IMG/VR virus record: IMGVR_UViG_3300029121_000001 | Length of the DNA stretch: 64,000 nucleotides | Strand: one strand, 5' to 3' | Source: a virus | Shown: in pieces, positions 11,153 to 50,855 of the stretch | How the letters are laid out: the number at the start of each line of letters is the position of its first letter | How positions within the stretch are numbered: the first letter of the stretch is position 1 | Made by a program: the position numbers and the translations under genes | Notes under the pieces: model-generated | The model's input: only the letters and a program-made list of their open reading frames with translations | Told to the model about the DNA's origin: nothing | Database searches by the model: none

Positions 11153-11555
11153 TAATCTCCTTTTCTTCTTTATACTCTCTATTATTCAAAGCAAGAACGC
11201 CTTTGACAATCATATTGTCAAATCTAATATTCGTAGCTTCGATAATGGTAGTATGTCTAAAATATTGAATATCATCATCTTCAGGTTCTTTAATAGATTT
11301 CCAATATTCAAGAGCATCCATAATACAATGCTTATTGATTTCCATATAGTATGTAATATTTCTTTTTTCACTACCAGAATATATACCAAATGGCAAATAC
11401 AAATTATTTTCATCATAGCATGGATATGCCATTGTATCTTCATTCTTACAATTAGAATTATTATTAAGAATACGAATTAGTGGAAAATTATCAGGAGTTT
11501 TATGATAATCGCTTCTTGAAATTTCTATTTTACTGTCCATTGAATTCACCATCAT
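11139..11555 (-). CDS. hypothetical protein, paralogue of 11530..11760
   Basis: Shared module Y(D/E)xN(Y/N)LY(I/L)P...(I/M)(K/E)I(D/N)KHCIMDA(I/L)(K/E)(H/Y)W(E/K)S. Confidence 0.65.
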   Translation of the reverse strand: MMVNSMDSKIEISRSDYHKTPDNFPLIRILNNNSNCKNEDTMAYPCYDENNLYLPFGIYSGSEKRNITYYMEINKHCIMDALEYWKSIKEPEDDDIQYFRHTTIIEATNIRFDNMIVKGVLALNNREYKEEKEISDDE

Positions 11556-11760
11556 TCATAGATTCCCAATGTTTAATAGCATCCATAATACAATGCTTAT
11601 CTATTTTAATATAAGCAACAATCCTACCAGTAAATATTGGAATATAAAGATAATTGTCATCATACTGTGCATGTGCTTGAGGATATGAAGTTCCAGAATT
11701 ATCTGCTTGCCTCATTGTTTCAGATGCTGGATATGCATCAGGAGTTCCATAATAATTCAT
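11530..11760 (-). CDS. hypothetical protein, paralogue of 11139..11555
   Basis: 76-aa ORF carrying the same KHCIMDA..W.S module. Confidence 0.65.
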   Translation of the reverse strand: MNYYGTPDAYPASETMRQADNSGTSYPQAHAQYDDNYLYIPIFTGRIVAYIKIDKHCIMDAIKHWESMNDGEFNGQ

Positions 11761-11764
11761 ATCA

Positions 11765-12922
11765 TCACTCTTTCTTTAAAATTTCTTCTAATTCTTCTAC
11801 TGTAAGAAATTTTTCATCTTGCTTTAGATAGTTAACCCACATAACAAATTTTTGTTCGTCTGTAAGTCTCGGATCTAACAAAAATGCCACTTTTTCATTA
11901 TCTTCTTTGATTTGTTGCTCTGCTTGTCTAGCAATCTCAATCTCTTGAGAATAAAAATCAAGAGTAACAGATTCATCTCCTCTAAATCCATCATTGATAG
12001 CCATTTTATTGGAACCAATAATAGGCTTAGTAAACTTAACTTTGATAAAGTCTATTCCTTGAGTTTGCTTAAGATTCCTAATGTAGTTAATCGTTTCTAT
12101 TGGATCATTTTTGATAATATCATCAAGATAAATAGTCTTATATATATCAGAGATAATCTCTTGATAATCAAGATAATAATATCTCGTATTGATATTATAG
12201 GTCATCAAGATGAAACCTTTTTTATGATCATCATCGAATCTCCATCTATATGGAGATCCGCAATAATAGAAATGATCATCAAATACACCAGGTTTATGAA
12301 CATGGCCTGAAATAATAGGACCTTTACAATTCAAAAAATCTTCAATATGAAAAAGTCTTCCGTTACCAACATTATCTCCAAATACTGCTCCATGAATAGT
12401 ACCATGCATAATGCATAGATCATAAAATCCAGATCCAAAAAGCATATGCTGATAATATTCTTCGGGAATTCCATATAATTCAGGAATGCAAAGAATTCGA
12501 GCATTTTTAACCATTTCAAATCTAATATTAGTCACTATTCTTACATCAACATCTTTTCTTTGCATATAGTGATAATAGATTTTTATTTGGTTAGCATCGT
12601 GTGAAAGAGTTCCTTGTAAAAGAATTAAAGTAGCATTATGAGATTTACAAATTTCGACCAATCGTCCAATAAACATTGAAGCATATAAAGTTGCATCAGA
12701 TGATGTTTGTACTTTATGATCAAATAAATCTCCATTAACACATACAAGATCTAATCTAGGCATAGCTTCGATCTTTTGAAGAAATTGATCTTCCAAGAAA
12801 TTGTATTGTTTTAATGGATCCATTACAGGAAAATGTAAATCTGAAATATGAGCAGTGATTAGAGTTCCTTTATCGATTTCTGCTTTTAAGTTATATTGAG
12901 CAACTTCTTCTTCAATAGTCAT
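11765..12922 (-). CDS. Mre11/SbcD-like metallophosphoesterase nuclease (T4 gp47-like)
   Basis: Calcineurin-like motifs SDLH, NGDLFD, GTLSHD, MHGT, SGHVH. SD AAAGGA. Confidence 0.75.
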   Translation of the reverse strand: MTIEEEVAQYNLKAEIDKGTLITAHISDLHFPVMDPLKQYNFLEDQFLQKIEAMPRLDLVCVNGDLFDHKVQTSSDATLYASMFIGRLVEICKSHNATLILLQGTLSHDANQIKIYYHYMQRKDVDVRIVTNIRFEMVKNARILCIPELYGIPEEYYQHMLFGSGFYDLCIMHGTIHGAVFGDNVGNGRLFHIEDFLNCKGPIISGHVHKPGVFDDHFYYCGSPYRWRFDDDHKKGFILMTYNINTRYYYLDYQEIISDIYKTIYLDDIIKNDPIETINYIRNLKQTQGIDFIKVKFTKPIIGSNKMAINDGFRGDESVTLDFYSQEIEIARQAEQQIKEDNEKVAFLLDPRLTDEQKFVMWVNYLKQDEKFLTVEELEEILKKE

Positions 12923-19731: not shown

Positions 19732-19758
19732 GGTGGAGAGGAGTCAATCCTCTCCACC
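19732..19758 (-). terminator. strong rho-independent terminator
   Basis: GGTGGAGAGGA-gtcaa-TCCTCTCCACC, then TTTTATTT on the minus strand. Confidence 0.85.
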
Positions 19759-21217: not shown

Positions 21218-22384
21218 TTAGTTATTAAGTTCTTCATATCTATCATCTATAGCACCAAACAGAGCATCATTATCGGTGTCCTGTTCTCGTCTATCTCCAC
21301 CAAAGTTCTTATAAAGTAGCGTATAGTAGATACGAATAATTCTCATAGAATCTTGATCCTTCGGGAAATTGATATAATCATCAATAAGCTTATTAAGTTT
21401 ATTAAGCTCAGCGACAAGTTCTTTCTTAATCTTAGGATCAAGTCCTTCTTTAGCAATTTCTCGTTTTAGATAATCTACAGAAGTCTTAATACGAGCAAGA
21501 TCTCCAGGATGTTCATCTTGAACATTAAGTACATAATTTAGAAAATCATTAAAATATAAGAGATATGCTTCAGTATATTCAATGAAAGGAGGATATTGCT
21601 GTACTCCATAATATTCTCCATAGAGTTTATTAGTCATCTTCATAAGGCATCTATGAAGTTCTTCTGCATATCCGAACATCGCAGCAAATGTATCAGCAAA
21701 CTTTTCATTCGTATAATCATATCTAGATCTACGCATATTATCCTTCATAGATTCACTAAAGAATTGAGGCATTAGATCATGAAGGTTTTTACGAATACTA
21801 ATAATAGCAGAACTAAACTTACTTAGCTCTTGAGATACACTATAAGTACTAACCTTTTCTTTAGACTTAATTTTACTCATAATCATTTCATTGATTTTAG
21901 CTACAAGCAGATTAAGTCTACGAGCAGATGTATACTTACTATCTTTATTAGTAACAGCATCAAAGAAGCTATGACCAATTTCATGAAGCATAACAGCAAT
22001 CAATTCTTCATCTGTATAAAGATCATCGTCAATTAAGCCACTATTAATAGCCATAATAAAGCTAACACCAGGAAATACTTTCTTATACTTAAATCCAGTA
22101 GCATCTGCAGTAATAGAATTAAAAATTCTTTTCTTTTCATCTTCAGTATAATAAGTATCTACAGGCCAAGCATACGCATTAGGAAGATGACTAGGTTGAA
22201 TATAAAGAGCAAATGATTTGAAACCAAAAGTAACTTCTGCAATTCTATTAAATTTTAGAATTTCAGTATCTAGATTTGTATTACTAGTAACAGGTTTCAT
22301 TTTAATTTTCTTTCTTAGTTTGGTAAATTGATCCTGAAGTGTTTTGATAGAATCTTTACCAAAATATACTTCATTAAATATCAT
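21218..22384 (-). CDS. putative zinc metallopeptidase (HExxH)
   Basis: AVMLHEIGHSFFD in a 388-aa ORF. SD GAGGTGAG. Confidence 0.6.
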   Translation of the reverse strand: MIFNEVYFGKDSIKTLQDQFTKLRKKIKMKPVTSNTNLDTEILKFNRIAEVTFGFKSFALYIQPSHLPNAYAWPVDTYYTEDEKKRIFNSITADATGFKYKKVFPGVSFIMAINSGLIDDDLYTDEELIAVMLHEIGHSFFDAVTNKDSKYTSARRLNLLVAKINEMIMSKIKSKEKVSTYSVSQELSKFSSAIISIRKNLHDLMPQFFSESMKDNMRRSRYDYTNEKFADTFAAMFGYAEELHRCLMKMTNKLYGEYYGVQQYPPFIEYTEAYLLYFNDFLNYVLNVQDEHPGDLARIKTSVDYLKREIAKEGLDPKIKKELVAELNKLNKLIDDYINFPKDQDSMRIIRIYYTLLYKNFGGDRREQDTDNDALFGAIDDRYEELNN

Positions 22385-22394
22385 TTATCTCACC

Positions 22395-23138
22395 TCAAAT
22401 TGAAATCATATCTATCATGATAGAGAAAGACATATCAAGGATAGTAGATATTACATAAGCAATAGAACTCATTTTATCGACAGTAGCTGGATCATCATTT
22501 AAATGTGCAATCTTTCTAAATTCTTCAGACATAAGAATAGATTGAACAGAAATTCTAATATTATCAAATGTAATACCAGTTATAGATTTAGCTATGCTTG
22601 AAGTATTACCAGTAATTAGGAAATTAATTCCTACAATAGAAGATTTATAGATAGTAAGCACTTCTCTATATTCTTTTTCAAACCCATATTTTACTGCAAC
22701 AGACATACCGAGATTACTATTAATAGGCTCAAGTACATATTTTACAATCATATTAAAAATTGCACCCAAACCTACTTTTCTACAAATATATCTAAGAGCT
22801 ATCATAATAAGATAAGTATTTATATTATAAATACCTCCTACTAAGAACATTGCTCTTACATAATTTATAGATTTGAATTTACCTCCAGAAGGCATGAATC
22901 CTTGCAAATTAGATTTCTTATAAAGCTCTTCCATATTATCAGAAATAATCTCGTAGAGCTTCTTTCTAACATTTTCTGTTAAAGCTTTAGATCTAACAGC
23001 TTGATCAGCCATAAAGGAAGTAAATTGTTCTATAGATTTATCATGATCTATTTCTATATGAAAGAAATCTACAAGAGCTTCATTGAAATATTGTTCAGAT
23101 AGAAGTTCTTGAGAATATTCAATAGAATATATAGCCAT
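22395..23138 (-). CDS. membrane protein with an MAIYS leader, degenerate paralogue of 23638..24501
   Basis: The C-terminal half aligns with the neighbour (KYGFEKEY..., MSEEFRKI...), but the EExxK and HxxxN motifs are absent. SD GGGGGTGA. Confidence 0.7.
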   Translation of the reverse strand: MAIYSIEYSQELLSEQYFNEALVDFFHIEIDHDKSIEQFTSFMADQAVRSKALTENVRKKLYEIISDNMEELYKKSNLQGFMPSGGKFKSINYVRAMFLVGGIYNINTYLIMIALRYICRKVGLGAIFNMIVKYVLEPINSNLGMSVAVKYGFEKEYREVLTIYKSSIVGINFLITGNTSSIAKSITGITFDNIRISVQSILMSEEFRKIAHLNDDPATVDKMSSIAYVISTILDMSFSIMIDMISI

Positions 23139-23142
23139 TATA

Positions 23143-23628
23143 TCACCCCCAATTATTACTCATTCTTAATTGAAGATTTTTATTTTTATCATAATCAACA
23201 AGAGTCATGGTATTAATATATATCTTAGGCTGACTCTTTAATATAAATTTTACTCCAATTTGTCCACATGGATGAATATTTTCTGTTTTATATTCTTTAT
23301 AACATGCACGTTGGTATTCCAAATCATCTTTAACATCTTTTGGGGACTTATAATGATTATTAAATGCACCATTTATATTTTGAATTTGAATTGTATTCAT
23401 GTTTACTTTAGAAAATTTTTTGAAATATGCATTAGCTGTAAAATCAACTATCTTATTCCAATCTCTTTCTACTAAATGAATAGCCATCCATATTTTATCA
23501 TCATCAACATCACAAAATCTTGTATCTCTACTACTCAATAACATTTTTCCTTTAAGTTTAAAAGGATTGATCAAATGATAATTTTCATTTAATAATGAGC
23601 AACAATAGTCTATAGAATATATAGCCAT
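23143..23628 (-). CDS. hypothetical soluble protein with an MAIYS leader
   Basis: 161-aa ORF, SD AAGGAGG. Its first 17 nt are identical to those of 22395..23138. Confidence 0.75.
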   Translation of the reverse strand: MAIYSIDYCCSLLNENYHLINPFKLKGKMLLSSRDTRFCDVDDDKIWMAIHLVERDWNKIVDFTANAYFKKFSKVNMNTIQIQNINGAFNNHYKSPKDVKDDLEYQRACYKEYKTENIHPCGQIGVKFILKSQPKIYINTMTLVDYDKNKNLQLRMSNNWG

Positions 23629-23637
23629 ATATCCTCC

Positions 23638-24501
23638 TTATAGAACCATTGATGCTAGGCAAGCAGCAGAGTTCCAAGAAACATGAATCAATGTACCAAT
23701 AGTATATGCACATAGAGTTGCTTGGTCTTTTGCATCTTTGGTATCTTTAATCTTAAACTTCTTTCTGAATTCTTCAGTAGAGAATATTTTGTTAATATAT
23801 GTAGTAAAGTTATGCATACCAACTACTGCTCCTCTGACAAGAATGGAGTCAATAATAGGAATACCAATTGCAGTCATTTGAACAACATAAGAAGTGAATT
23901 CATAAGAATTGAATACAATCATATATTCCTTCTCAAATCCACCTTTAACAGCAATAGATTTAGATGCTTCTTCAATGATAGGAGCACCAATAATGGCATA
24001 AATAGTTCCACCAACAGCAGGCATTAAGATTGTAAGAACACTATTTACCAATACACTAATAGTAAGAACATAGATAAATAGTACTAGAGCATTTTGAGTA
24101 TTTCTCTTATCTTTACATTTCTTAAGCCCAGGATTTTGTGCAATAACAGCTGCATCGATATTATCTGCAAATTCTTGAAATAGATCAGATACAATATTAT
24201 GAATTTGCTTCTTGGTTTCAGGAGTAGCTCCATTTTTCTTAATGGTATTTGCTATTTCCTTAGAAGCTTTATTAATCATCTGAGAACTGTTCTTAATACC
24301 AAGCTTGCTAAAGTCAGATTTAGGAGCAGCTGCTTCTATAATATAATCTTCTAGCAATGATCTATTAGAATTTAGATTATTACAAATTCTCTGTATATCT
24401 TTTGCAGAAAGATAAAAATCATTTTCATTAAAAGAACTAAGCTCATTACTAAAAGCTTCATTGACAATATTAAAACAGTTTCCAGAAGAAAATATTGCCA
24501 T
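23638..24501 (-). CDS. multi-pass membrane protein with PrsW/CPBP-like motifs and an MAIFS leader
   Basis: Start moved to the ATG at 24501 behind SD GGAGGTG. Motifs GAPIIEEASKSIAV (EExxK), GMHNF, LIHVSWNS (HxxxN) lie in hydrophobic segments. Confidence 0.6.
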   Translation of the reverse strand: MAIFSSGNCFNIVNEAFSNELSSFNENDFYLSAKDIQRICNNLNSNRSLLEDYIIEAAAPKSDFSKLGIKNSSQMINKASKEIANTIKKNGATPETKKQIHNIVSDLFQEFADNIDAAVIAQNPGLKKCKDKRNTQNALVLFIYVLTISVLVNSVLTILMPAVGGTIYAIIGAPIIEEASKSIAVKGGFEKEYMIVFNSYEFTSYVVQMTAIGIPIIDSILVRGAVVGMHNFTTYINKIFSTEEFRKKFKIKDTKDAKDQATLCAYTIGTLIHVSWNSAACLASMVL

Positions 24502-24602
24502 TTGCCATACACCTCCATTAAAGTTTATTAGATTAATAAGATGTAAAATAAAAAGATCCATAGGATCTACTCCTATGGATCTCATTTTACTGAAAATTGG
24601 AG

Positions 24603-25334
24603 TTAAATCTCGTCTTCTTCAATAACCATCTGAACACCAGCACTCTCCAGAGTAGCACGGATATCCGGATCAGTGTTACCATGGATCAGGACCTTCAGAT
24701 TAGCAGCAGAGATATCATCAGCCTCATGGCAAGCAATGATACCATTCAGAGTCTCAATAACAGACTCACAATTCAGTTCTGCACACTTCTGGACATCCTC
24801 AACATCAGTGAAGAACTCATCGTCAGAACGCTTTGCAACAACAACGTTGTTGTAGTCACGCTTGACAGCATCCACAGGGTTTACAGTCTGAGGATCCTCA
24901 GCTACAGAGACCTCATTGTCATTCGGGCCAACCTGAACGTCAACGGTGACATCATCGACATCGCCCTCATGGACATAGCGAGTGCACTGAACACCATAAC
25001 TCTCCAGGCCATTGACATACTTCATGGTGCTCTCATCAATAACAACATGAATGTTATCAGCAGCAACACCCTCATTGCAAGCAATGACATTATTCAGAGT
25101 TTCCATCATATTGCAACCTTCCAGCTTGGAGAAGTTAACAATATCCTTGCAATCAACGAAGTAACCTTCATTGGTCTTAGCAACAGGAATAGTGTTAGGA
25201 TCAGACTTAGCACCAGAGACAGGGTTCTCAATTGCATCGTCACCAAAAGATGCAGTAACCTCATGATCGGGACCGACTTGAACATCGATATCGTCTAGAC
25301 CCATATCATCATTTTCGTCAAAGTAATCTAGCAT
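24603..25334 (-). CDS. very acidic protein made of two copies of an approximately 95-aa module
   Basis: DVQVGP...VAK...(Y/F)F(V/T)D..D(I/V)......C....ETLN.(V/I)IAC(N/H)E......N(I/L).V.I occurs twice. C/G-ending codon bias. SD AAAGGAAGG. Confidence 0.85.
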   Translation of the reverse strand: MLDYFDENDDMGLDDIDVQVGPDHEVTASFGDDAIENPVSGAKSDPNTIPVAKTNEGYFVDCKDIVNFSKLEGCNMMETLNNVIACNEGVAADNIHVVIDESTMKYVNGLESYGVQCTRYVHEGDVDDVTVDVQVGPNDNEVSVAEDPQTVNPVDAVKRDYNNVVVAKRSDDEFFTDVEDVQKCAELNCESVIETLNGIIACHEADDISAANLKVLIHGNTDPDIRATLESAGVQMVIEEDEI

Positions 25335-25382: not shown

Positions 25383-25871
25383 TCAACCAAATAGATCGAA
25401 ACTAACATTAGATCTGTTAATTTCCATCTTGGTAGATTCACTCATATTATCATAATCAGAACGACGAATTGCTACTCTCATATTAGAAGGTTCAAGATCA
25501 TCATGAGCCATCATAATATTATTCATAGCAGCTTCATACTTAGTTTCCTTACATGCATCCATATAGCACTTCAAATCATTATGATCGACATAATAATTAT
25601 CACCATACTTTGCAATCATAACATTACGAGGATCCATACGAAGCTTGTCAATAGCCTCAATAGGTGTATTAGCTTCAATCGGAGGATCGTCGTCAGGAAT
25701 AGATATAGGAGTATCGCTTGAAACTCCATCTCCAGTAGGATCTTCATCATCATGAAGAACTACCTTAACATCTGCATCCATGTTATCATTCTGGGTTCTT
25801 AGATCAACAGGATTTTGAAAATATACATGACAATCTCTAGGGATTTCACACTCTTCTAGAGTATAAGACAT
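25383..25871 (-). CDS. acidic protein with one copy of the same module as 24603..25334
   Basis: VMIAKYGDNYYVDHNDLKCYMDACKETKYEAAMNNIMMAHDDLEPSNMRVAI. SD AAAGGAGGA. Confidence 0.8.
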   Translation of the reverse strand: MSYTLEECEIPRDCHVYFQNPVDLRTQNDNMDADVKVVLHDDEDPTGDGVSSDTPISIPDDDPPIEANTPIEAIDKLRMDPRNVMIAKYGDNYYVDHNDLKCYMDACKETKYEAAMNNIMMAHDDLEPSNMRVAIRRSDYDNMSESTKMEINRSNVSFDLFG

Positions 25872-25872
25872 T

Positions 25873-26700
25873 TTATTCTTCCTCCTTTATCTTAGAATCA
25901 TCAAGAAAATAAATTGCTTGAATCATCTGATTATCTTGATTCTGTGGTATCTGTTTTACTTCTTCCACAGTGGGAAGAGTATACATATTATCTCTAATCA
26001 TATCTATTCTGTTAGACATTGATTTACTAAATTGATCAAGTTGAGGAACTTGATATGCACCTTCCGGATCTAAGTAAATATTAGACTGAGATAGTAACAT
26101 ATTTTGTTCATCTGGATTAAATGACTTTTCATGAGCTTCTATTTCTTCAATAGTTTCTTTATCAGAAGGATCCATATATTGCCCATATTCTTTGATAAAT
26201 AGATCATATCTACCAAATACTTTAGATGGTGGAATAAATAAATATCCATTATGAACAAGCTCATGTTCTGTAGAAGAAAGAGGATATAATCCTACGATAC
26301 ATCTATAATGACAAGCCATTACTTCTTTAGCAACCATTTCGATAGAAAGATCTTCATGATTAGCAAGTCTTTTTTCATATACTATTCGTACAATATCTTC
26401 TAGTACAAATGGAGTATGATGAATTTCAATTTTCACATGTTTACTATCATTATTAGTAATATCAGGATTAAGTCCAGATCGATCCATTCCACAATATTCT
26501 TTAAGATATCTAACCATTGCTCTATATTCAAAAGAGCCACGTACTTCAGCCTTTATATCTTTGACGTATCTACCAAAGTCTTTAGGATTAGAAAGATCAT
26601 AATCTTCTTGATCATAATCAGGTAATTGGCCAATGTGAAATGTTTTACCAGAACTATCTCTGATATCATCAATTTTGATAAGATTAACAGGATTAATCAT
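25873..26700 (-). CDS. hypothetical protein, HH-motif family (paralogue of 50686..51552)
   Basis: VKIEIHHTPF...STEHELVHNGYLFIP aligns with ANIEMHHNFL...SETVHQLYHDTPDFYIP. SD GAGAGGGGA. Confidence 0.75.
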   Translation of the reverse strand: MINPVNLIKIDDIRDSSGKTFHIGQLPDYDQEDYDLSNPKDFGRYVKDIKAEVRGSFEYRAMVRYLKEYCGMDRSGLNPDITNNDSKHVKIEIHHTPFVLEDIVRIVYEKRLANHEDLSIEMVAKEVMACHYRCIVGLYPLSSTEHELVHNGYLFIPPSKVFGRYDLFIKEYGQYMDPSDKETIEEIEAHEKSFNPDEQNMLLSQSNIYLDPEGAYQVPQLDQFSKSMSNRIDMIRDNMYTLPTVEEVKQIPQNQDNQMIQAIYFLDDSKIKEEE

Positions 26701-30182: not shown

Positions 30183-30220
30183 TCCCGGTAGGAGAAAATC
30201 CTACCGGGATTTATTTTTTT
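30183..30220 (+). terminator. rho-independent terminator (between convergent genes)
   Basis: TCCCGGTAGGA-gaaaa-TCCTACCGGGA followed by TTTATTTTTTT. Confidence 0.85.
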
Positions 30221-33200
30221 ACAGTTGACTATCGTCGTAAGGAATTCCTGCTATATCTTTAATAGATCTATCGAGTTCTACCATAAGTTTAGAAGTTGCT
30301 GCAAATAGAGGAATAGAACATGTCATACGTCCAGAGATAGAACTTAGAGACATGAAACTGTCAATATGCTCATTGGGTCTGAAAGATGTATAAGGTTCTT
30401 GATCCTTAGGAATAATCTTTTTAATAATACCCTTATTTGCAGAATAGAACGTAATCTTATCACCGGCAGACATAGTATCTTTATGCTTAATATAATAAAC
30501 AACAAGAACTGCGTCATCGATATTTTTAGTTTTACCAACTTCAGGAACTTTACCAGTTTTAGGCAGAATAGCAGAATCGATATTGTATTTGTCGTATACC
30601 TTCTTAGTGGCTTTGACTTTCTTTTCATAAGTACCAACAAACTTACGAAGAGATTCAGACATTTCATCTTCACTACAAGTGCGATAAATCTGAATATCAC
30701 AGACAATTCCGGTATACTTAGATTTAACAGGGTTACGACCTAGTTCAGAAATTTCACCAGCATCCATTGCTAGGTTCTTAAGAAGAGTATTCATCGCTTC
30801 GTCATCAAAGTCAGCTTGATAAGTAAATAGAGTATCACCCTCAATAACATGATCACCGATCATTTTATAGACAGCAATATTAGATCCTTTTTCAAGCTTA
30901 GTTTCAATGCCTTGAATAACATCAGTACCCATCTTATTAGCAAAAGATTCTGTAATCATAGCAGAGTCTTCAAATCCTTCATCTGTATTAATAATAGCAA
31001 CTTTTGCAAGTGTGCCCATATTAGCAGCAAGATTACCAGATTCACCAAGAGATTTAGAGAAAGATAGTTTATCATATGCAATAACTTGACCAGCCTTAAA
31101 AGATTTACCTTCTGCAAGATCTGTATCAAGTTTCATAGGTACATAATAACCACCATCAGAGTTTTTCTTAACCTCTTCGCAGAGGTCAATATACTCATGC
31201 TTGCCACTCTTATATTCGACAACCATGTAATTTTTCTTACCAAATCCCTCTTGAACAAGTTCTACAATTTTACCATCTTCTTTTGCTTTATAAGCAAAGA
31301 TGTCAGAGGTAAGATAAGGTAGAGCTTCATCTGCACCAGTAGTAATAAGCGTAGGATCATTATTGTCACAACGAATCATATGCTTAGAAGTCTGGACATA
31401 TGTCATTAGAGATCTAGGAGGATCATCATGGGTTGTTCCAAGAGGAGTAACAGCTTCAGTGATAGTAAAGGAAGAAGCAGAAGACAATTTATCAGTATTG
31501 CCATCAATTGTTTTAACAAATCCTCTACCACCTTCAATATTAGCATTAACAGTTGCCTGACGATTAATACCAACGTTACCAGAGAATCCAGTATCCATAC
31601 CAAGGACATTTAGCATGGAATCGTCATACCCACGTGTAGCAATAGTATAACCACGAGCAACATTCATACCAACTAGACCTTTGTTAGTAACAGAGTTTGC
31701 ACACTCGACGTCATTAAGAGCATTATTAACAGAAAGGTCAGAAGTAGCAGGATCTTTAGAAACAATTAGATCAATAACAGCAGATTGTTTAATTGTCATC
31801 TTAGTTCTCTTACGAGTATGACGATTCTGGTTAGCATAATCTTGATAAGAAGTAGTAAGAGCTTTGTAGAAATAGCCAGCAATAAGCTCTTTACGACGCC
31901 ATCTACGACCTCCTTGATCAATATGACGTACATACTTATTATCTGCAAGCATATTACTTGCATGAATTAGTACACCAACGTAATCACTAGGAAGTTTAAA
32001 ACGTTCAAGAATTTCCTTAGTAATAGGATCAATCATACAGTCATAAGAGTTTTCTAGACCATCAGCATTAAGACTATTGGTATAATTTTCAAGAAATTCA
32101 AGGTACATTCTTCTATTATTTACATCCTTAATCGAATAAGAAGATGTATCATTTTCCTTGATACCATTCATAAGCATAGTAGAAGAATAGTTGACATCAT
32201 ATACAAGATATCCATCAGAAAATTCAATATAATCTTTATCCATATTATATTTCAAATCTTTATCCATATCTTGTACAAATTCATATTTGATTCCTGCTTT
32301 ATTCATAGTTTTTACTAGACCTTCTAGGTAAGCACAAACAATGACAACAGGAATTTCACAATTCAGAATACTTGCTTTAGAATAAGTACAACGAGTTCCA
32401 GTAATCTTAGTACTGTTATAGAAGTCCATATAATCTTTAGATCTATAGAATAGAATCTCAGTAATATATGCTGCTAATGTAGATCTAGTTCCATCATAAT
32501 AGATGATAGTATCTTTGCCACTCTTAGATTTTTCATCAAAGATAGTAAAGACACCAATAGGAACACCCTTAGTATCATCAACTTCATATTCACTTCTAAG
32601 CTCATCTTGGTTAAAGAATATTTTCAAACCAGTGGCTTCAATAGAGTTAAATACTTGTGCAAGATCGATATAGTCTATAGGCAATTCATACTTGGTACAA
32701 ACTTTAGTATTATCGCCAGCGACAAATGTGATATCATTATGCTTATCACAATATTTACCTAGTGTTCTAATAAGCTTATTTGTATAAGGATTAGATTGTC
32801 CCTTACGAGAACCGAATCGTCTAACAAATATCTTATTATAACCACCGGAGCCAATGATCTGACATTCTCCAAGTCCAGTCTTAATTATAGGAAGTAGCGC
32901 AGACTGAATCATCAGAGTCTTTTCATTACCACGAAGCTTTAAGAAATTAGATCCATTGATAAACTTAGGAATATCAATTTTAAGTGTAAATTTAGTTTTC
33001 TTATAATCTACACAACTAATAGTCCATAGATCCAAGACATCTTCAGAAGAAGAATTATCTTTGACATCAATATTGTCAACTGCAACAGGATAAGTCCAGT
33101 GTTGCATAGAATCTAGCATCTTGATGATATCACTATCAGGATCATAATCCTTATCAAAGTTCATAAAGGTCATATGCTCCCAATCATCATTAATAGAAGC

Positions 33201-36200
33201 AACCTTTAGTTTAGTTTCAGGAAGTTCCTTTTCTGCTATATCAACAGTTAGGAGTTCTTTAACAGATTTACCGTCAACTTCCTTTTTATGGAATTCTTCT
33301 TGTTTAGCAACAACAGTAGAAGACTGAGTCTTATCAACTCTAATATTCTCTTCAGTATCTTGTTGCACAGCAACGATCATTTCCTTAAATTCTTCTGTAT
33401 TAAGTTTATCAGTTGCAGTATCCTCACTATCAGAAGTTTCAGCTGCTTTTACAACAGCATCGACAATAGCATCTTTCTTTTCTTTATCAGAAGTACTATT
33501 GGCAGATTTGGTGCCAGATACACCAGTATCTTCCTTGTTATCTTCTTTGGTAACTTCCTTTTCTTTTACTTCAACTTTAGCTACAGTCTTCTTTGTAGAC
33601 TTAGCATAATTAGTTTGAGTAACATTAGAAGCAACCTTAGAAGGATCCGCAACTACTTTCTTTTTTACAGCAACATTTACAGATCCAGGAACTCCATCCT
33701 TATAGATATTAGCACTTGTAGAAAGTTTTTCAATCTTAGAAACGTCATTGATTTGAACATTCTGAGATTGTTCAACTTTATCAATTATAGACAATGCAAT
33801 ACCCTTAGGAGAATCTTCAAGTTCACCTTCAGGATCAGGATCTGCGGGAGAATTATATCCAAGATTAATGATTCTCTTAGTAAGTTGAAGAAACTTAGTT
33901 ACATTAGCAGACTTAGTGAAATCATCTTTTGCAAAATTAATCTTGAAATAATTCTTAGCACCGAGAAAAACAATATCCTTATCACCAAAGATCTTCTTAA
34001 GAGTTCTGACATCATTCTTCATATAATAATAGATGACAGAGATAGGATTGATATCCTGCTTATACATCCACATTTTCTGAGATTCATTATGATGCCAATC
34101 AAGAACAGGAATAAAGACAGTTTTCTTAGAATAGTTACTCAAAGAATCATCGTTGAGTAAACGTTCCATCAATTCAATATATGTCTTAAACAGACGCATG
34201 ACATTATTTCTATCATCGTCATTAATTTGAGACATATTTCTAAAGAAAGATTCATTATAGAAAGATAGATCATAGAAGAGATTACGATTATTATATCTAG
34301 AAAGTTTTACAAATGTATATCTGATAAAAGGCATATCTGCTTTTATCTTTTTATACATATTCAAGACATCTTTATCGTTTCTCATTCTGTCTTTATATAA
34401 TGCTTTACGAAGTTGAGCATCATACTTAGCAGAATCTTCAAACAGATAAACTATTCCACCTTCATTGATATAATCTTTCTGAGACCACTGATCTAATGTA
34501 TTACCAGTAAAAGACTCAGCAGTAGTTTCAGGTTCTGCATCTGGAGCAGTTTCAGGAATACCAATTTTTTGTAGAGATAAAGCTTCTCCCTTATCAGAAT
34601 CATTGGTACCACGTTCAAGATCTCTTCTAAGTTTATTGAGTTTATATATTGTCTTACTTTTAAAACGTCTTTTAAGTCTATCTCCCATAGTACTTATCCT
34701 TTTAAGACTATCAGGAGTAGGATCTGGAATAGGAATATCTTCCTCATTTAAATTACTAATGTAATCAACTTCTTCTCTAATAGCTTTCATGAAATCATTA
34801 CGACTATTAAAGAAGTCATTCATTCCATATTGCTTACCATATTCTTTTGCATATTCATAGATAGCAACAGTATCATTGTAAGCAAGAATTCTAGTAAACT
34901 GATCAATTCCATCGGTATCGATAATATACTGAAATACACGTTCTAGATTAAACTGATCATCTCTATCTCTCTTAGCGATTTCTCCATCGGCAATACCAGA
35001 TAGAAGAATAGCTGCAGGTTCAGCTAGAGTATGCATGACTCTATTATATTTACTACCAACAGGAGTTTTAATAGTATAAATAGCATAGAGTTGAAAGATA
35101 TAAGCAATATAATCTTTATAATCGAATTGAGCACCAGTTCTATAGAAAGCGCCAGGCGTATAAACTAAAAGAGATGTTTCAGTAAAAGATTCAGGTGCCT
35201 GATGATCACTACAACAAATGACATTGATTTTGTCATTAGGCATTCTCTTATTCAATCTTCTGAAACATTCTTTTACATATTTTTGATTAACAAACTTTTG
35301 AACCAGTTGAATATCTCTTTCATAGCCTGTAAATGTAATAAGAGTAAATTCCTTATTCATTTTACGATTTGCTGTAGGGAGAGCAGTTTGACTCATGAAA
35401 TTAGATACTCTAAATTCATTAAAATATTCTTCCTCAGTAAATTCTCTTAGAGTCTTTTTAGACCCTCTTACAAATATAGTATCAAAATCATCTTTATGAA
35501 TACTATATCCAGGCCCCAGAACTGCTTTTACTTCATCACAGATAGCATCAATTTGTTCTTTAGGATATTTACCAAGGCATAGATCATCTGTACCATCAAT
35601 AAATTTCTTAGATCCAAAAGGTCCATTTGCAGTAATTTTGCATGTATGAAATTTATTCTTAATAGTATCAGTAATTGCGTTAACTAGCATTTCACGATAC
35701 TTATAAGGATCCATATCTTGTTCATGAACAGCTTTAGAAGCAAGGCCAGATTTTTCCCAATATGGCTTAAATCTATTGCCATCGCCTACATGAACTTGAT
35801 CAGCCATATCATACTCTTTAATCTTCTTAATGATATTCTTTGCAAGTTCAGCCTCATATTCTTTTTCTACATGATTAAAGAATCTAATAGCAGCAAGAAC
35901 ATGTGCTTCATCATTAAGAGGATATCTACGCTGTTTAGGTAAACCAAATTCACTATCATCTAGCTGTTTTCTCTCAGAAGAAGTCAATTCAACTTCAAAT
36001 AGATATTGGCCAGGATCACCAATATCAATAACAGATTCATTTTGCTGCTTAATATATCTTGTAATACTTTTCTCTACATAATACGATTCAAAGGTTCTTC
36101 TATTAATAACATAAGGTTCAGTCATTGCAAGCATAGAAGACTGATAGTTTGGTGTCAATAGCATAATAGCAGAACCATGACGTTTGTCTTTTAGATTTAT

Positions 36201-36260
36201 AGGAAGAAAGAATTGTTTCTTATAGATCATCAAATCTTTCAGATCATTGAGTACAACCAT
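30219..36260 (-). CDS. giant protein: about 1000-aa N-terminal region of unknown function fused to a multisubunit RNA polymerase beta-like module
   Basis: The C-terminal half carries beta signatures. NALNDVECANSVTNKGLVGMN...GFSGNVGINRQ resembles NPLSE..H.RR.SALGPGGL...PEGPNIGL. THDDPPRSLMTYVQTSKHM resembles EHDDANRALMGANMQRQ. NTDEGFEDSAMITE resembles NGYNFEDSILISE. SD AAGGAGG. Confidence 0.8.
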   Translation of the reverse strand: MVVLNDLKDLMIYKKQFFLPINLKDKRHGSAIMLLTPNYQSSMLAMTEPYVINRRTFESYYVEKSITRYIKQQNESVIDIGDPGQYLFEVELTSSERKQLDDSEFGLPKQRRYPLNDEAHVLAAIRFFNHVEKEYEAELAKNIIKKIKEYDMADQVHVGDGNRFKPYWEKSGLASKAVHEQDMDPYKYREMLVNAITDTIKNKFHTCKITANGPFGSKKFIDGTDDLCLGKYPKEQIDAICDEVKAVLGPGYSIHKDDFDTIFVRGSKKTLREFTEEEYFNEFRVSNFMSQTALPTANRKMNKEFTLITFTGYERDIQLVQKFVNQKYVKECFRRLNKRMPNDKINVICCSDHQAPESFTETSLLVYTPGAFYRTGAQFDYKDYIAYIFQLYAIYTIKTPVGSKYNRVMHTLAEPAAILLSGIADGEIAKRDRDDQFNLERVFQYIIDTDGIDQFTRILAYNDTVAIYEYAKEYGKQYGMNDFFNSRNDFMKAIREEVDYISNLNEEDIPIPDPTPDSLKRISTMGDRLKRRFKSKTIYKLNKLRRDLERGTNDSDKGEALSLQKIGIPETAPDAEPETTAESFTGNTLDQWSQKDYINEGGIVYLFEDSAKYDAQLRKALYKDRMRNDKDVLNMYKKIKADMPFIRYTFVKLSRYNNRNLFYDLSFYNESFFRNMSQINDDDRNNVMRLFKTYIELMERLLNDDSLSNYSKKTVFIPVLDWHHNESQKMWMYKQDINPISVIYYYMKNDVRTLKKIFGDKDIVFLGAKNYFKINFAKDDFTKSANVTKFLQLTKRIINLGYNSPADPDPEGELEDSPKGIALSIIDKVEQSQNVQINDVSKIEKLSTSANIYKDGVPGSVNVAVKKKVVADPSKVASNVTQTNYAKSTKKTVAKVEVKEKEVTKEDNKEDTGVSGTKSANSTSDKEKKDAIVDAVVKAAETSDSEDTATDKLNTEEFKEMIVAVQQDTEENIRVDKTQSSTVVAKQEEFHKKEVDGKSVKELLTVDIAEKELPETKLKVASINDDWEHMTFMNFDKDYDPDSDIIKMLDSMQHWTYPVAVDNIDVKDNSSSEDVLDLWTISCVDYKKTKFTLKIDIPKFINGSNFLKLRGNEKTLMIQSALLPIIKTGLGECQIIGSGGYNKIFVRRFGSRKGQSNPYTNKLIRTLGKYCDKHNDITFVAGDNTKVCTKYELPIDYIDLAQVFNSIEATGLKIFFNQDELRSEYEVDDTKGVPIGVFTIFDEKSKSGKDTIIYYDGTRSTLAAYITEILFYRSKDYMDFYNSTKITGTRCTYSKASILNCEIPVVIVCAYLEGLVKTMNKAGIKYEFVQDMDKDLKYNMDKDYIEFSDGYLVYDVNYSSTMLMNGIKENDTSSYSIKDVNNRRMYLEFLENYTNSLNADGLENSYDCMIDPITKEILERFKLPSDYVGVLIHASNMLADNKYVRHIDQGGRRWRRKELIAGYFYKALTTSYQDYANQNRHTRKRTKMTIKQSAVIDLIVSKDPATSDLSVNNALNDVECANSVTNKGLVGMNVARGYTIATRGYDDSMLNVLGMDTGFSGNVGINRQATVNANIEGGRGFVKTIDGNTDKLSSASSFTITEAVTPLGTTHDDPPRSLMTYVQTSKHMIRCDNNDPTLITTGADEALPYLTSDIFAYKAKEDGKIVELVQEGFGKKNYMVVEYKSGKHEYIDLCEEVKKNSDGGYYVPMKLDTDLAEGKSFKAGQVIAYDKLSFSKSLGESGNLAANMGTLAKVAIINTDEGFEDSAMITESFANKMGTDVIQGIETKLEKGSNIAVYKMIGDHVIEGDTLFTYQADFDDEAMNTLLKNLAMDAGEISELGRNPVKSKYTGIVCDIQIYRTCSEDEMSESLRKFVGTYEKKVKATKKVYDKYNIDSAILPKTGKVPEVGKTKNIDDAVLVVYYIKHKDTMSAGDKITFYSANKGIIKKIIPKDQEPYTSFRPNEHIDSFMSLSSISGRMTCSIPLFAATSKLMVELDRSIKDIAGIPYDDSQL

Positions 36261-36377
36261 TTACATTTACCTCCTTGAATATGATTATAGTAGTGTTCAA
36301 CTTGACCATTTTTAAGGATTTTAGAGAATACTTACTTCTGAAACTTTCATATAAAACTATGAAAAGGAGAAATGAGT

Positions 36378-37589
36378 ATGGGAAAAGCATTCATTAGTAC
36401 ATTCACATATGATTGTGAATTAGCATTTAATTCTCAAGATGGTACATCTGAAGATATATTTAAACAGTGCGTAAGATATATTATTGTCAATCATGACTAT
36501 ATGAAAAATATGATGCCACTTATATATGTGAATGTGAATTTGAAACCTTCTCTATATAATAAAATGGTACCTGAGCAAGGTAAGAGTAAAGTATATCTTA
36601 AATTGTATTGTACTAGAAATAAAGGTTCTACGTCATCTACAGCTAAGAAAGTTATATATGGAGAATTCGATTATTATATGGCAGATGATCCTAATTCGTA
36701 TAAGGAATTGGATACTATCAATGAAGATCAGGGTACATCTTATAAGGTTTGTCAATTGGCACTATTTTCTCTTGATCTTCAGAAGAAAAATCAAAAGAGC
36801 TTTGGCGGAGTTATGAAAGGAAAAACTCCTCAAGATTTAGTAAAAGAATCATTAAAAGATATGAATAATCTTGTAATGCAGCCTTTTGATAATAATAGTA
36901 GTCTTGGTACATTTGTTTGCCCTAATTTAAGTTCTGTTGCAAAATTCATCGGGTATTTGAATAATAAAGCATCTTTCTATAAAGGAAATTATATGTTCTA
37001 TATGGACTTCGAGAAAACATATTTACGAAGTTACGATGGATCATATATTGATGCTGGAGATGGAGATCATAAAAATATTGCAATAGATGTTAGAGATCTT
37101 ACTCAGTATAAAGGATTAGCTTCTGGTATTGTAGAAGATCCTGATCAAGATGCGTATATTATTTATGTAAATGGATCTGATTGTACTATTAGTGTAGATA
37201 GAACTTCTAGTTCCATTGTTGGCAACATTAGCTCTGTTAACGTAGAGCAAGGAACAAAACTGCAAGCTGATGTAGTTAATACTTCTAATATTACTAATAT
37301 TAGTGATACTGGTTCTTCTATCATTACTGTTAGTGAAGATAAAAATGCCGCAAGTAATATCAAGACTAAGATTGCTGAAAATGCTAATACTCTTATCTTT
37401 AGTAAAATAGATATGGACAGTAGAATCTTTACTCCAAATAAACAATATACTCTATCCAATTATGAAGATAATCCAAAGTATACTGGCGTATATTATCTGA
37501 TAAAGAAATATGAGATCTATCTACGAAGTGGAGATCATATGAATTGTCAGATGACTAATACATTTAAAAAGACTGCAGATTTTGTATAA
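36378..37589 (+). CDS. hypothetical protein (possible virion protein)
   Basis: The ATG at 36378 has better SD spacing (AAAGGAG) than the one at 36372. Confidence 0.75.
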   Translation: MGKAFISTFTYDCELAFNSQDGTSEDIFKQCVRYIIVNHDYMKNMMPLIYVNVNLKPSLYNKMVPEQGKSKVYLKLYCTRNKGSTSSTAKKVIYGEFDYYMADDPNSYKELDTINEDQGTSYKVCQLALFSLDLQKKNQKSFGGVMKGKTPQDLVKESLKDMNNLVMQPFDNNSSLGTFVCPNLSSVAKFIGYLNNKASFYKGNYMFYMDFEKTYLRSYDGSYIDAGDGDHKNIAIDVRDLTQYKGLASGIVEDPDQDAYIIYVNGSDCTISVDRTSSSIVGNISSVNVEQGTKLQADVVNTSNITNISDTGSSIITVSEDKNAASNIKTKIAENANTLIFSKIDMDSRIFTPNKQYTLSNYEDNPKYTGVYYLIKKYEIYLRSGDHMNCQMTNTFKKTADFV

Positions 37590-38420: not shown

Positions 38421-39284
38421 ATGAGCAAGATTGGATATATTCTAAATGAATCCAGTGTTTGCATGGAAAATGTAGACATTAGAGAAGATAAAAATGATCG
38501 CACTAGAGTTACTGGAATGGGAATTCTTCAAACCGGTAATGAAAAGAATCGTAATGGGCGTATATATCGTACTGCTGATCTAGCAAAGGAAATTGCCGCT
38601 CCTAGGCAACAAGAACTGCTTGCTGCTAAGCAAATGTGTGGTGAAGCTGGACATCCTATTGGAGCAGATGCTAGTTCTCTGGTTCGTCAGCAGACTATTG
38701 ATCCGACCAAGATTTGTGTCCGTTATCTGAAGCTATGGATGGAAGGTGATAATGTTATGGGCACCTTCCAAGGTACTAATAATGCTCTCGGTGAAGCATT
38801 CGATAAGGATCTTCGTCAAGGTGTTCTACCTGCATTTTCTCTTCGTGCACTTGGTACCATTTCTAGTACTCCTCAAGGTGCAGTTGTTGAGAATCTGAAG
38901 ATGATTACATATGACTATGTTATTTATCCTTCTCATCCTCATGCATACACTAAGGGAGTCATTAATGAGTCTGCTGGTATTGCTAGTGCAGTCAAGTCTA
39001 ATTTCACTATGAATAGTTCTATGGATGGAACTAGATCTTTCATTAAGGAATTTAGCAATAAGGATGTAGTTAATGCAATTACTTCTATGAGAGAATCTGC
39101 AGTTGATTATATTAAAGATAAGAGTCATAATTTTAAGCTTCTCCAAGAGTGCTATGATATGACTAATTATGATACCATTGATATTATTAGTCCTCATAAG
39201 ATTGCTCTAACAGAAGCTGGTAAGAATACTATCATTATGAATGTTGAAGATTATATTGCAAATGAAATTCAGAATTATGTATAA
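38421..39284 (+). CDS. prohead core protease, T4 gp21-like
   Basis: NRNGRIY..LAKEI...CGEAGHP...W.EGDNVMG...DLRQGVLPAFSLRALG aligns with T4 gp21 NRNKRLYP..LEKAV...LGELNHP...WWKGNDVYG...NIRAGWIPGVSSRGLG. SD AGGAGGA. Confidence 0.8.
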   Translation: MSKIGYILNESSVCMENVDIREDKNDRTRVTGMGILQTGNEKNRNGRIYRTADLAKEIAAPRQQELLAAKQMCGEAGHPIGADASSLVRQQTIDPTKICVRYLKLWMEGDNVMGTFQGTNNALGEAFDKDLRQGVLPAFSLRALGTISSTPQGAVVENLKMITYDYVIYPSHPHAYTKGVINESAGIASAVKSNFTMNSSMDGTRSFIKEFSNKDVVNAITSMRESAVDYIKDKSHNFKLLQECYDMTNYDTIDIISPHKIALTEAGKNTIIMNVEDYIANEIQNYV

Positions 39285-49811: not shown

Positions 49812-49887
49812 TGGAGCTGGTAATAGGACTTGAACCTACAACCTGCTGATTACAAATCAGCTGCTCTGCCAATTGAGCTATACCAGC
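49812..49887 (-). tRNA. tRNA-Thr (anticodon UGU), CCA encoded
   Basis: Manual cloverleaf: acceptor GCTGGTA/TACCAGC, D stem GCTC/GAGC, anticodon stem GCTGA/TCAGC with loop TTTGTAA, T arm GTAGG-TTCAAGT-CCTAT. Confidence 0.9.
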
Positions 49888-49895
49888 ATATTAAG

Positions 49896-49966
49896 TTGCG
49901 CCAGCAGGAGTCGAACCTACGATGGGGGAGTCAAAGTCCCCTGCCTTACCGCTTGGCGATGGCGCA
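49896..49966 (-). tRNA. tRNA-Gln (anticodon UUG)
   Basis: Acceptor TGCGCCA/TGGCGCA, anticodon stem GGGGA/TCCCC with loop CTTTGAC, T arm GTAGG-TTCGACT-CCTGC. Confidence 0.85.
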
Positions 49967-50120
49967 TTAAATCTAGCGAAGTCACGGCACCCGCTTACAA
50001 GACCTACTGCTTCAGTAGCGACTACCGAAGAGCTGGGAATAATAGGCGAAACAGAAAGGAATGCAGTACATCTCTGGTAAGATGCGAAGCGAAAGCAACA
50101 AGTTTGATGAAACGTAGTCG
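49967..50120 (-). ncRNA. candidate small structured RNA between tRNA genes (not a canonical tRNA)
   Basis: 154-nt spacer, relatively GC-rich. Long-range pairing CGACTAC(50120-50114)/GTAGTCG. Local hairpins CATCT-6-AGATG and CTACT-5-AGTAG. No credible ORF. Confidence 0.35.
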
Positions 50121-50196
50121 TGGAGCAGCTGACGAGTCTCGAACTCGCAACAACCTGCTTGGAAGGCAGGTGCTCTACCAATTGAACTACAGCTGC
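50121..50196 (-). tRNA. tRNA-Gly (anticodon UCC), CCA encoded
   Basis: Acceptor GCAGCTG/CAGCTGC, anticodon stem CCTGC/GCAGG with loop CTTCCAA, T arm GCGAG-TTCGAGA-CTCGT. Confidence 0.9.
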
Positions 50197-50357: not shown

Positions 50358-50855
50358 TTAATTTAAATTAAAAGCATTAATATTTTTTAATGCTTCTCCT
50401 TGTTCCTTAGGAGTATTTTGATCTATAGAATAATTCAATACTGCAAATTTTGCTTTAGATTTAATAGATTCAATCATATGCTCATCTGTATCCATCGGAT
50501 ATCCAACAGATAGAATGTTCTTTTGTATAGGAGTCATTTCTATAATAATACCACTTATAATATATTGAACGCATGAGATCATATTATCTTGTGACATATA
50601 ATTTTCTGTCTCAGGATTCAAATTATAAATCTGCCATTCAGCAAGTTTTTGATTTACCAAATACTCCATTGTTTCTCTAGATTCTTTAATTGAGTATTTG
50701 CTCTGCAGTGTAAATTTGTCCGATTCCTGACGGATTTCTGAGATCCTGAGAAGGGTTTTCGACAAGCGTGTTAAACTCGAATTTAGCATTATTAGTGCTC
50801 CCATTACCGTAATTAGTAATGCTACCACAATAGTTATTATAATAACTGTATTCAT
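50358..50855 (-). CDS. hypothetical membrane-anchored protein
   Basis: ATG at 50855 behind SD GGGGAGA. N-terminal TM helix MNTVIIITIVVALLITVMGALIML. Overlaps the 3' end of the upstream gene by about 170 nt. Confidence 0.6.
   Translation of the reverse strand: MNTVIIITIVVALLITVMGALIMLNSSLTRLSKTLLRISEIRQESDKFTLQSKYSIKESRETMEYLVNQKLAEWQIYNLNPETENYMSQDNMISCVQYIISGIIIEMTPIQKNILSVGYPMDTDEHMIESIKSKAKFAVLNYSIDQNTPKEQGEALKNINAFNLN

Follow-up and report, generated by a model that had tools for sequence, protein, structure and literature searches.

The 64,000-nucleotide stretch of IMG/VR virus record IMGVR_UViG_3300029121_000001, analysed here over its full length and hereafter called the window, contains four genes whose products begin with a shared peptide of 14 or 15 residues, the leader. 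Three of these genes are clustered on the minus strand and encode proteins of 287 aa (23638..24501), 161 aa (23143..23628) and 247 aa (22395..23138). Their leaders are MAIFSSGNCFNIVNE (24457..24501), MAIYSIDYCCSLLNE (23584..23628) and MAIYSIEYSQELLSE (23094..23138), respectively, the last being the sole copy in the window without a cysteine at position 9 (Cys-9). The fourth gene is on the plus strand (54819..55355) and encodes a 178-aa protein; its open reading frame (ORF) starts with MAIFTESYCQNVLEG, of which the 14 residues MAIFTESYCQNVLE (54819..54860) make up the leader, followed by G. The leaders follow the pattern M-A-I-[FY]-[ST]-x-x-x-C-x-x-Φ-Φ-x-E. A six-frame search of the window identified exactly these four real ORFs starting with MAI[YF][ST] and no others. 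The sharing of the leader is real and far beyond chance; when the window was shuffled 100 times, the degenerate, back-translated DNA pattern of the leader never occurred. A terminal hydrophobic-x-Glu motif, which the original prediction had placed at residues 13-15, occurs in all four proteins, except that the Glu of the 178-aa protein (V-L-E) is residue 14 and not 15.

Four otherwise unrelated proteins had been proposed to share the leader. All four do carry it; the 247-aa and 287-aa proteins, however, are paralogous (BLASTP E-values of 3e-9 to 4e-13), and the window therefore holds three unrelated bodies, not four. The first 17 nucleotides of two genes, those of the 247-aa and 161-aa proteins, are identical as initially noticed, and 23 of their first 25 nucleotides are the same, forming the 25-nt DNA repeat D2. 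A Shine-Dalgarno sequence GGAG(G) lies 4-10 nt upstream of three of the four leader genes, while the 247-aa gene has GGGGG instead. For the 287-aa gene, the predicted start at 24501 proved secure, because it is preceded by GGAGG at 24516..24512, the longer ORF from 24585 arises from translation of a terminator-like hairpin (24583..24553), a 98% relative (L001) has a stop codon immediately before the equivalent ATG, and the proteins in all 12 homologue clusters begin at the corresponding Met.

The leader was then followed through about ten related gut jumbo-phage genomes, which are metagenomic contigs of 160-290 kb, one of them from a Hadza gut sample. It is kept on every homologue of each window body. 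In the family of the 287-aa protein (the PrsW-like family, 12 clusters at 33-97% identity) the leaders start with MAIF or MAVF, the form MAIFNEAYCNELLYSQFDEE also occurs, and the most distant member starts with MGVYSNIIDD. The 178-aa family includes orthologues at 84-97% identity together with 143-aa (L035) and 142-aa versions, all with a leader of the form MAIFTES/AYC..[VIL]LE followed by G, C or N. In the 161-aa family, the leader takes the forms MAIFSENYFNE and MAIFTESFCKE[IV][VI][IN]E, and it is retained in homologues of 52% (P0020) and 26% (P0022) identity; the P0020 leader has a four-residue internal deletion, yet its F-N-E still abuts the body. The original prediction named leaderless homologues in related phages as a finding that would refute it; instead, the leader persists on homologues of all three bodies at identities as low as 26-33%. 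The relatives also yielded at least three more bodies that bear the leader and are unrelated to these, namely a 260-aa protein in L004 (MAIFTEYTCLNWFNE), a 152-aa protein in L140 (MAIFTESTCLNWFNE), which weakly matches a PHROG family of 'internal head protein', and a 155-aa protein in L066 (MAIFTEDYCNEYLNN).

Altogether 19 distinct leaders were aligned, giving the consensus M-A-I-F-T-E-x-[YT]-C-x-x-Φ-Φ-x-E. Positions 1-4, 9 and 15 show almost no column entropy and positions 5-6 only little, and hydrophobic residues occupy positions 12-13. Cys-9 is present in 18 of the 19 leaders and the Φ-x-E motif in 17, with L, V, I, F or M at P3 and Glu at P1. Beginning with position 16, the entropy rises abruptly to 2.5-3.4 bits, and the conserved unit thus ends exactly at the Glu. 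The leader codons vary synonymously among copies (GCT/GCA/GCC, ATA/ATT, ACT/ACA and TGT/TGC), which argues for selection on the peptide rather than on the RNA. Taken as sequence, these patterns describe a modular leader that is subject to purifying selection and terminates at Φ-x-Glu.

Wider scans for further MAI[YF][ST] starts, which had been suggested as a check, showed that unrelated bodies of the relatives carry the leader and that the genome closest to the window has no extra copies. In that 248.6-kb genome, a complete IMG/VR scan with a combined Shine-Dalgarno, leader and Cys pattern found no leader genes beyond three pattern-compatible ones and the Cys-less 247-aa gene. True matches to the strict leader DNA pattern across IMG/VR were confined to four contigs of one sample, all others being random and non-ORF. 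A scan with the pattern MAIFTE gave mostly noise, with L066, L140 and L143/L151 among the matches listed. Most other matches to the combined pattern belong to a widespread 78-aa phage protein family (MAIFSKELCQKKLNTWLAAEE.., with a MAIFSKELC start), which was rejected as unrelated, its first nine residues having converged by chance. This family occurs in many IMG/VR contigs (L161-L224) with a G+C content of 45-61%, and its members start with MAIFSKELCQKKLNTWLAAEES.ATGQSYQIG.R.

Looser or more distant versions were seen at several places. The contig L140 encodes a very acidic 185-aa protein (11949..12506) that begins MSIFEDLLHE and continues with D. L006, a relative of 43% identity, encodes a 154-aa protein (11323..11787) with MSIFNVNESSLGEYLNE followed by N, immediately downstream of a zincin gene. 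The distant relative L143/L151 is tied to the window via a homologue of gene 36372..37589 (E-value of 4e-30) and has four consecutive large genes (L143 4530..10076; L151 4107..9653) whose products start with MAIFTES (MAIFTESELNDLFEE), MGIFTNN, MGIFTNT and MSLFSNN. Three of the four are mutually paralogous, the first matches a PHROG of 'virion structural protein' at 2e-28, and another matches weakly. The array looks like a counterpart of the phiKZ inner-body array gp92-97.

The most common body behind the leader is a putative PrsW-like intramembrane metalloprotease, represented in the window by the 287-aa protein. It has a helical N-terminal domain of ~120 aa followed by four or five hydrophobic helices that form a C-terminal bundle, and it matches Pfam PF13367 at an E-value of 1.9e-4 (21.5 bits, compared to a gathering score of 23.5); 13 of 14 family members match this profile, the best with an E-value of 6e-6. 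As in PrsW/CPBP-type proteases, EE..K, H and H..N motifs sit on a hydrophobic helix bundle, whereas the soluble N-terminal domain of ~120 residues and the leader are additions of the phage protein. Residues E177, E178, K181, H230, H273 and N277 show at least 90% conservation across the family alignment, the 247-aa paralogue being the one sequence without them. Since this paralogue has the catalytic EE, H and H..N residues all replaced, it is probably catalytically dead. In the AlphaFold2 (AF2) model of the PrsW-like protein, the predicted local distance difference test score (pLDDT) is 71.6; it falls below 50 in residues 1-60, within which the leader forms a detached helix. Foldseek searches with this model against PDB and BFVD returned nothing significant, and homologue searches found the family only in this phage clade.

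The remaining bodies of the window are soluble and highly charged by hydropathy, in contrast to the 287-aa and 247-aa membrane proteins. The 161-aa protein is basic and has a predicted alpha+beta fold without a known relative. In its AF2 model (mean pLDDT of 74.7, predicted template modelling score of 0.75) the fold begins at residue 17, pLDDT is below 50 only at residues 1-15, 36-39 and 159-161, and Foldseek gave no significant match in PDB and BFVD. Its residues 26-100 make up a module of ~75 residues that resembles (E-value of 8.7e-7) a unit repeated at least four times in P0021, a 709-aa bacterial protein with a signal peptide and a C-terminal anchor; the likeness may hint at a host-derived or surface-binding ancestry of the module. 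The 178-aa protein is acidic with a K/E-rich insert, and its gene lies between two virion structural protein genes (phrog_20751 and phrog_19418), starting 17 nt past the stop codon of one that encodes 1055 aa. Pfam and PHROG searches with the bodies other than the PrsW-like one gave nothing useful, and comparison with the internal head proteins of phrog_2497 revealed no homology.

The three clustered leader genes open a transcription unit that is bounded by hairpins. The unit upstream ends at the hairpin at 24553..24583 (minus strand, 13-bp stem and T-run); the next terminator-like hairpin on the same strand is found at 19758..19732, and the unit is predicted to run on into a zincin gene directly downstream of the leader genes (21218..22384, minus strand). 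This M48-like zincin has the HExxH motif in the form HEIGH, belongs to phrog_2767 and matches Pfam M48 (PF01435) with 27.8 bits compared to a cut-off of 20.3. Its homologue g204 of phiR1-37 carries the annotation 'phage structural protein' and has other structural genes as neighbours, and the homologue g051 of AR9 is annotated as 'zincin protease'. It corresponds to a conserved, uncharacterised peptidase of group-1 jumbo phages for which extra maturation cleavages have been proposed (Iyer et al., PMC7824862).

The zincin gene is also the conserved anchor of a cassette locus that is syntenic in L001-L004, L035, L038 and L039, the stretch between it and the gene for a conserved acidic 240-aa protein being hypervariable among relatives. 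For instance, the cassette consists of the PrsW-like gene, the 161-aa gene and the inactive PrsW-like paralogue in the window and L001, of the PrsW-like gene alone in L002 and L003, and of the 143-aa 178-like protein gene and the PrsW-like gene in L035. In L038 the PrsW-like gene is accompanied by a gene for a 152-aa protein without a leader; L039 has a frameshifted 178-like copy and a 161-like gene, and L004 has the 260-aa protein gene, a frameshifted 178-like copy and a split PrsW-like gene. The homologues of the 178-aa protein in the relatives sit within the cassette. Past the leader, N-termini can be chimeric; the 260-aa protein of L004 shares ~40 residues with the PrsW-like N-terminus. 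The 178-like copies are frameshifted in two independent genomes (L039 9919..10429 and L004 8604..9040), in L039 within an A-rich run (AAAAAGAAAAAAG...) and in L004 inside the leader, which could be due to gene decay, homopolymer assembly error or slippage. Just upstream of the cassette, two very acidic proteins (243 aa, 24603..25334; 162 aa, 25383..25871; both on the minus strand) have a common, internally repeated module with motifs ..ETLNGIIACHE.. and ..ETLNNVIACNE.., reflected in DNA repeat D1 at 24716, 25064 and 25595. The pair is conserved in all relatives and has no family match. Two paralogues of PHROG 12252 (function unknown) occur in the window at 25873..26700 and 50686..51552 (both on the minus strand), one of which heads a gene string that runs into the leader cassette.

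A candidate processing enzyme is encoded at 38421..39284 on the plus strand. The original prediction of a T4 gp21-like prohead protease at this position was upheld by profile and structure-based comparisons: the product matches Pfam Peptidase_S77 with an E-value of 8.6e-13 (48.6 bits, cut-off 27), Pfam S80 at 2.7e-6 and phrog_207 at 3.7e-28, and it aligns with the T4 gp21 structure 5JBL (E-value of 2e-5) including the catalytic His and Ser. Its nearest phage kin are the proteases of Bacillus phages AR9 and PBS1 and of Staphylococcus jumbo phages. The N-terminal site of T4 gp21 itself, LIE-9, 'conforms with its cleavage logo' (PMC9026906), and the proteases of phiKZ and SPN3US likewise cut after Glu. 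Judged by sequence, P3 of the leader (L/V/I/F/M) is closer to the T4 site LIE-9 than to the A-x-E of SPN3US, and this hydrophobic P3 agrees with the higher score of the window protease on S77 than on S80.

We favor the interpretation, with a probability of about 60%, that the leader is a modular capsid-targeting propeptide which the prohead protease usually cleaves behind Φ-x-Glu. Through its invariant N-terminal half (MAIF.E..C), a freshly translated protein would attach to the core or scaffold of the prohead and become enclosed as the shell forms. The gp21-type protease would then cut after the Φ-x-Glu at residues 12-14 or 13-15, and the mature cargo, freed inside the head, could be ejected into the next host along with the DNA. 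The same tag would be attached to interchangeable, unrelated cargo genes in the fast-turnover cassette beside the virion zincin gene. Members without Glu-15 could be targeted and left uncut, or they could be cut further downstream, e.g. at FDE-19. The T4-like sorting or propeptide tag that had been suggested initially thus gains from the conservation of the leader, its boundary at Glu, the gp21-family protease, the virion-gene context and the precedents of phiKZ and SPN3US, while the members without Glu speak against part of it. The reservation that two carriers are membrane proteins is weakened by the SPN3US ejection protein gp47, which has both a propeptide and one transmembrane helix (PMC5694885); a polytopic protein still goes beyond this precedent.

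Several observations weigh against this interpretation. We infer both the virion presence and the cleavage of the leader proteins from sequence. Glu-15 is absent from L066 (..YLNN), P0010 and P0011 (..LLYSQFDEE) and P0012 (MGVYSNIIDD), which weakens the cleavage part, and Φ-x-E tripeptides are common in the AT-rich proteome of this phage, so that the motif alone is weak evidence. The string M-A-I-F-[ST]-x-x-x-C is also found on the unrelated 78-aa phage family and is therefore not diagnostic by itself. Among the closest cultured relatives examined, no MA.F leader family was seen in the inspected regions of AR9 or, near the protease, of Staphylococcus phage UFV_DC4; the Φ-x-E that AR9 virion proteins have at residues 10-13 is only generic and occurs too often to serve as evidence. 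Cys-9 has no counterpart in the T4, phiKZ and SPN3US leaders and is left unexplained by the model. The commonest cargo is a polytopic membrane protease, the packaging of which would have no precedent beyond the single transmembrane helix of SPN3US gp47. The tight linkage to the zincin gene suggests another processing enzyme, and the co-occurrence of M48-like and PrsW/CPBP-like proteins and a conserved Cys is reminiscent of the two CAAX protease classes, a likeness that we regard as coincidental. On the other hand, loss of Glu-15 with a better conserved targeting half would be compatible with the behavior of the T4 capsid-targeting sequence (CTS), in which Asp at position 10 stops cutting and not packaging (PMC9026906).

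The zincin linkage leads to a different proposal, which we regard as improbable: the leader could serve the co-transcribed M48-like virion zincin, or else the PrsW-like protease, as a recognition element or pro-sequence in place of the gp21-type serine protease, Cys-9 perhaps acting as a zinc-binding cysteine switch, and cassette and zincin together would form a self-contained processing module. The cassette always immediately precedes the zincin gene within one transcription unit, which fits this proposal, as do the extra cleavages proposed by Iyer et al. for the group-1 jumbo-phage enzyme (PMC7824862) and an invariant Cys-9 that a CTS does not account for. However, leader genes also occur far from the zincin gene (at 54819 in the window, and in L066 and L140), and the more distant phages L005-L007, AR9 and phiR1-37 have a zincin gene without leader genes immediately upstream, although L006 has one related MSIF.. 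leader gene immediately downstream of it. Moreover, the same Cys is found on cargo that is not a protease, and Glu at P1 with a hydrophobic P3 at 11-15 residues from the start is a cleavage signature of the gp21, gp175 and gp245 type. A tag that is never cleaved, serving interaction or other targeting (to the portal, the virion RNA polymerase, the inner body or a membrane complex), would explain why the MAIF.E..C half is better conserved than the Glu and why some members lack the latter; two of the carriers are membrane proteins, and SPN3US has 42 uncleaved head proteins. We nevertheless consider such a tag unlikely, given that Glu is present in 17 of the 19 leaders with the conservation boundary exactly there, and that the internal deletion in P0020 spares the Φ-N-E junction. 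For a membrane signal in particular, the soluble and highly charged cargo is a poor fit, and inspection of the sequences revealed no likeness to Sec, Tat or lipoprotein signals. Signal peptides, lipoboxes and double-glycine leaders were rejected upon the same inspection, there being no hydrophobic core, lipobox or GG. No support was found for a phage-nucleus import signal; no linear signal of this kind is known to have been described.

It is very improbable that the peptide lacks a function and that the shared 5' ends merely result from recent local duplication or from gene conversion, or act at the mRNA level, e.g. as a translation-initiation region or a recombination microhomology. Adjacent genes do share 17 identical nucleotides, and 23 of 25; strong GGAG(G)-type Shine-Dalgarno sequences precede all leader genes except the 247-aa gene with its GGGGG; and the cassette recombines actively, so the leader DNA could be a crossover point. 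In contrast, the peptide is kept among orthologues of only 26-70% identity that use different synonymous codons, its conservation is position-specific at the amino acid level, and the fourth copy in the window lies 30 kb away on the opposite strand. Recombination homology has reportedly been proposed alongside the CTS function for the internal-protein loci of T-even phages. As the two roles can coexist, this reading is no true rival of a capsid-targeting propeptide.

The window has a G+C content of 32% and encodes ~75 genes. Sequence comparison places it in the genome of an uncultivated human-gut jumbo phage belonging to the AR9/phiKZ supergroup, an assignment that follows from the AR9/PBS1 and Staphylococcus jumbo-phage kin of the protease, the RNA polymerase (RNAP) subunits and the metagenomic relatives. 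No near-identical DNA was found among GenBank phages, and a tblastn search of them with the PrsW-like protein gave no match; the clade is known only from metagenomes. The RNAP beta-like protein of 2013 aa (30219..36260, minus strand; phrog_3148) resembles virion RNAP subunits of AR9/PBS1 and Staphylococcus jumbo phages, and its gene adjoins the prohead protease gene. A second RNAP subunit, DNA topoisomerase II, helicases and three tRNAs are also encoded, whereas the large terminase was detected as a partial profile match only, covering part of the profile in a 405-aa ORF (61080..62297, minus strand). The RNAP beta-like protein has an N-terminal extension of ~830 residues outside the RNAP profile coverage. 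Because its AR9 counterpart, g078, is annotated as proteolysed, with virions holding the RNAP domain only, the extension may by analogy be a long propeptide. An HNH endonuclease ORF (57551..57949, plus strand) follows the RNAP subunit gene at 56293..57528. As the terminase and RNAP genes of AR9 are split by introns or inteins, those of the window may be interrupted too. The tRNA cluster (49812..50196, minus strand) comprises Thr-TGT, Gln-TTG and Gly-TCC.

If the leader is indeed a capsid-targeting propeptide, this 15-residue string would flag, from sequence, the injected cargo of an abundant clade of uncultivated human-gut jumbo phages, some of whose protein clusters here comprise 40 to 155 member sequences. 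Such cargo would be candidate effectors of host take-over or anti-defence that are beyond recognition by homology. The leader would also offer a candidate tag with which to engineer jumbo phages for the delivery of proteins. A more tentative suggestion, which we would not rate as probable, is that an active PrsW-like protease and other effectors are packaged, injected with the DNA and inserted in the host membrane, where the protease could act on membrane regulators or defence sensors of the host, cleaving them at the very outset of infection. In that case, the PrsW-like protein would be the first polytopic membrane enzyme delivered by a virion. Cys-9 and the linked zincin would point to an added tethering or activation step foreign to T4. 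What is unexpected here is the membrane-protease cargo together with the invariant Cys; the remainder extends textbook T4 biology.

The closest known system by design is the CTS of T4 (MKTYQEFIAE), which was reportedly described on IPI, IPII, IPIII and Alt by Mullaney and Black in 1996. Compared with this sequence, only M1, the aromatic residue at position 4 and E6 coincide with the leader, and on these grounds the leader is better described as an analogue of the CTS than as a member of the T4 sequence family. The likeness is one of organization. In T4, a 10-residue CTS steers the internal proteins to the core of the prohead and is removed by gp21, with determinants of targeting in its N-terminal part and of processing at residues 8 and 10 (PMC9026906); the conservation of the leader splits likewise into an N-terminal half and a processing end. 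Both are short N-terminal peptides (10 residues for the CTS, 10-20 for T4 propeptides and 14-15 for the leader), both end in a hydrophobic-x-Glu site of the gp21 type in a phage that encodes a gp21-family protease, and both are found on otherwise unrelated, fast-evolving accessory proteins. The T-even internal proteins are 'highly diverse ... with only a conserved CTS' (PMC3012670), and their loci are hypervariable, as are the cargo loci here. On the other hand, the leader exceeds the CTS by five residues and contains an invariant Cys, its phage is a jumbo phage of the AR9/phiKZ type, and a polytopic membrane protease figures among its cargo, where T4 has small, basic, DNA-associated proteins.

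Within the supergroup itself, the internal head proteins gp92-97 of phiKZ have leaders of 11-13 residues that end in SLE or LLE. The propeptides of phiKZ and SPN3US were reportedly characterized by Thomas and colleagues in 2012 and 2013. In phiKZ, gp93 was found experimentally to be cut at SLE-13, and in SPN3US, gp53 and gp54 share the identical 15-mer MANFVKSKLARESVE within proteins that are 34% identical overall, a peptide that the authors called CTS-like (PMC5694885; see also PMC10052503 for the gp92-97, gp53 and gp54 propeptides). These phages have a virion RNAP, a gp21-like protease and a zincin like the phage of the window, and their N-terminal leaders of 11-15 residues end in x-x-Glu (..SLE-11/13 in phiKZ); gp53 and gp54 also have an MA.F start and Glu at position 15, as the leader does here. 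The processed phiR1-37 protein sp24 begins with MAMFLESANTQKVE. For the corresponding g199 (L029 10870..11649), the GenBank record states that the 'mature protein N terminus is Asp56', while the coding sequence has Glu at position 56 and Asp at position 60; the annotated start or numbering appears to be four residues off, and we did not use this site as evidence for cleavage specificity, as it is irreconcilable with the coding sequence. Across this handful of cases, an M-[AGS]-x-F start combined with Glu at positions 11-15 looks like a recurrent mark of head-internal proteins of the supergroup. The two systems differ in that the phiKZ and SPN3US leaders occur only among paralogues of one family and precede multi-site propeptides of more than 100 residues, whereas the leader described here is found on unrelated small proteins and seemingly constitutes the whole propeptide. 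P3 is Ser, Ala or Gly in phiKZ and SPN3US, and hydrophobic here, as in T4. If our interpretation holds, the capsid-targeting principle, proven only in T4 and suggested for the paralogues of phiKZ and SPN3US, would extend to a modular tag in the AR9/phiKZ supergroup.

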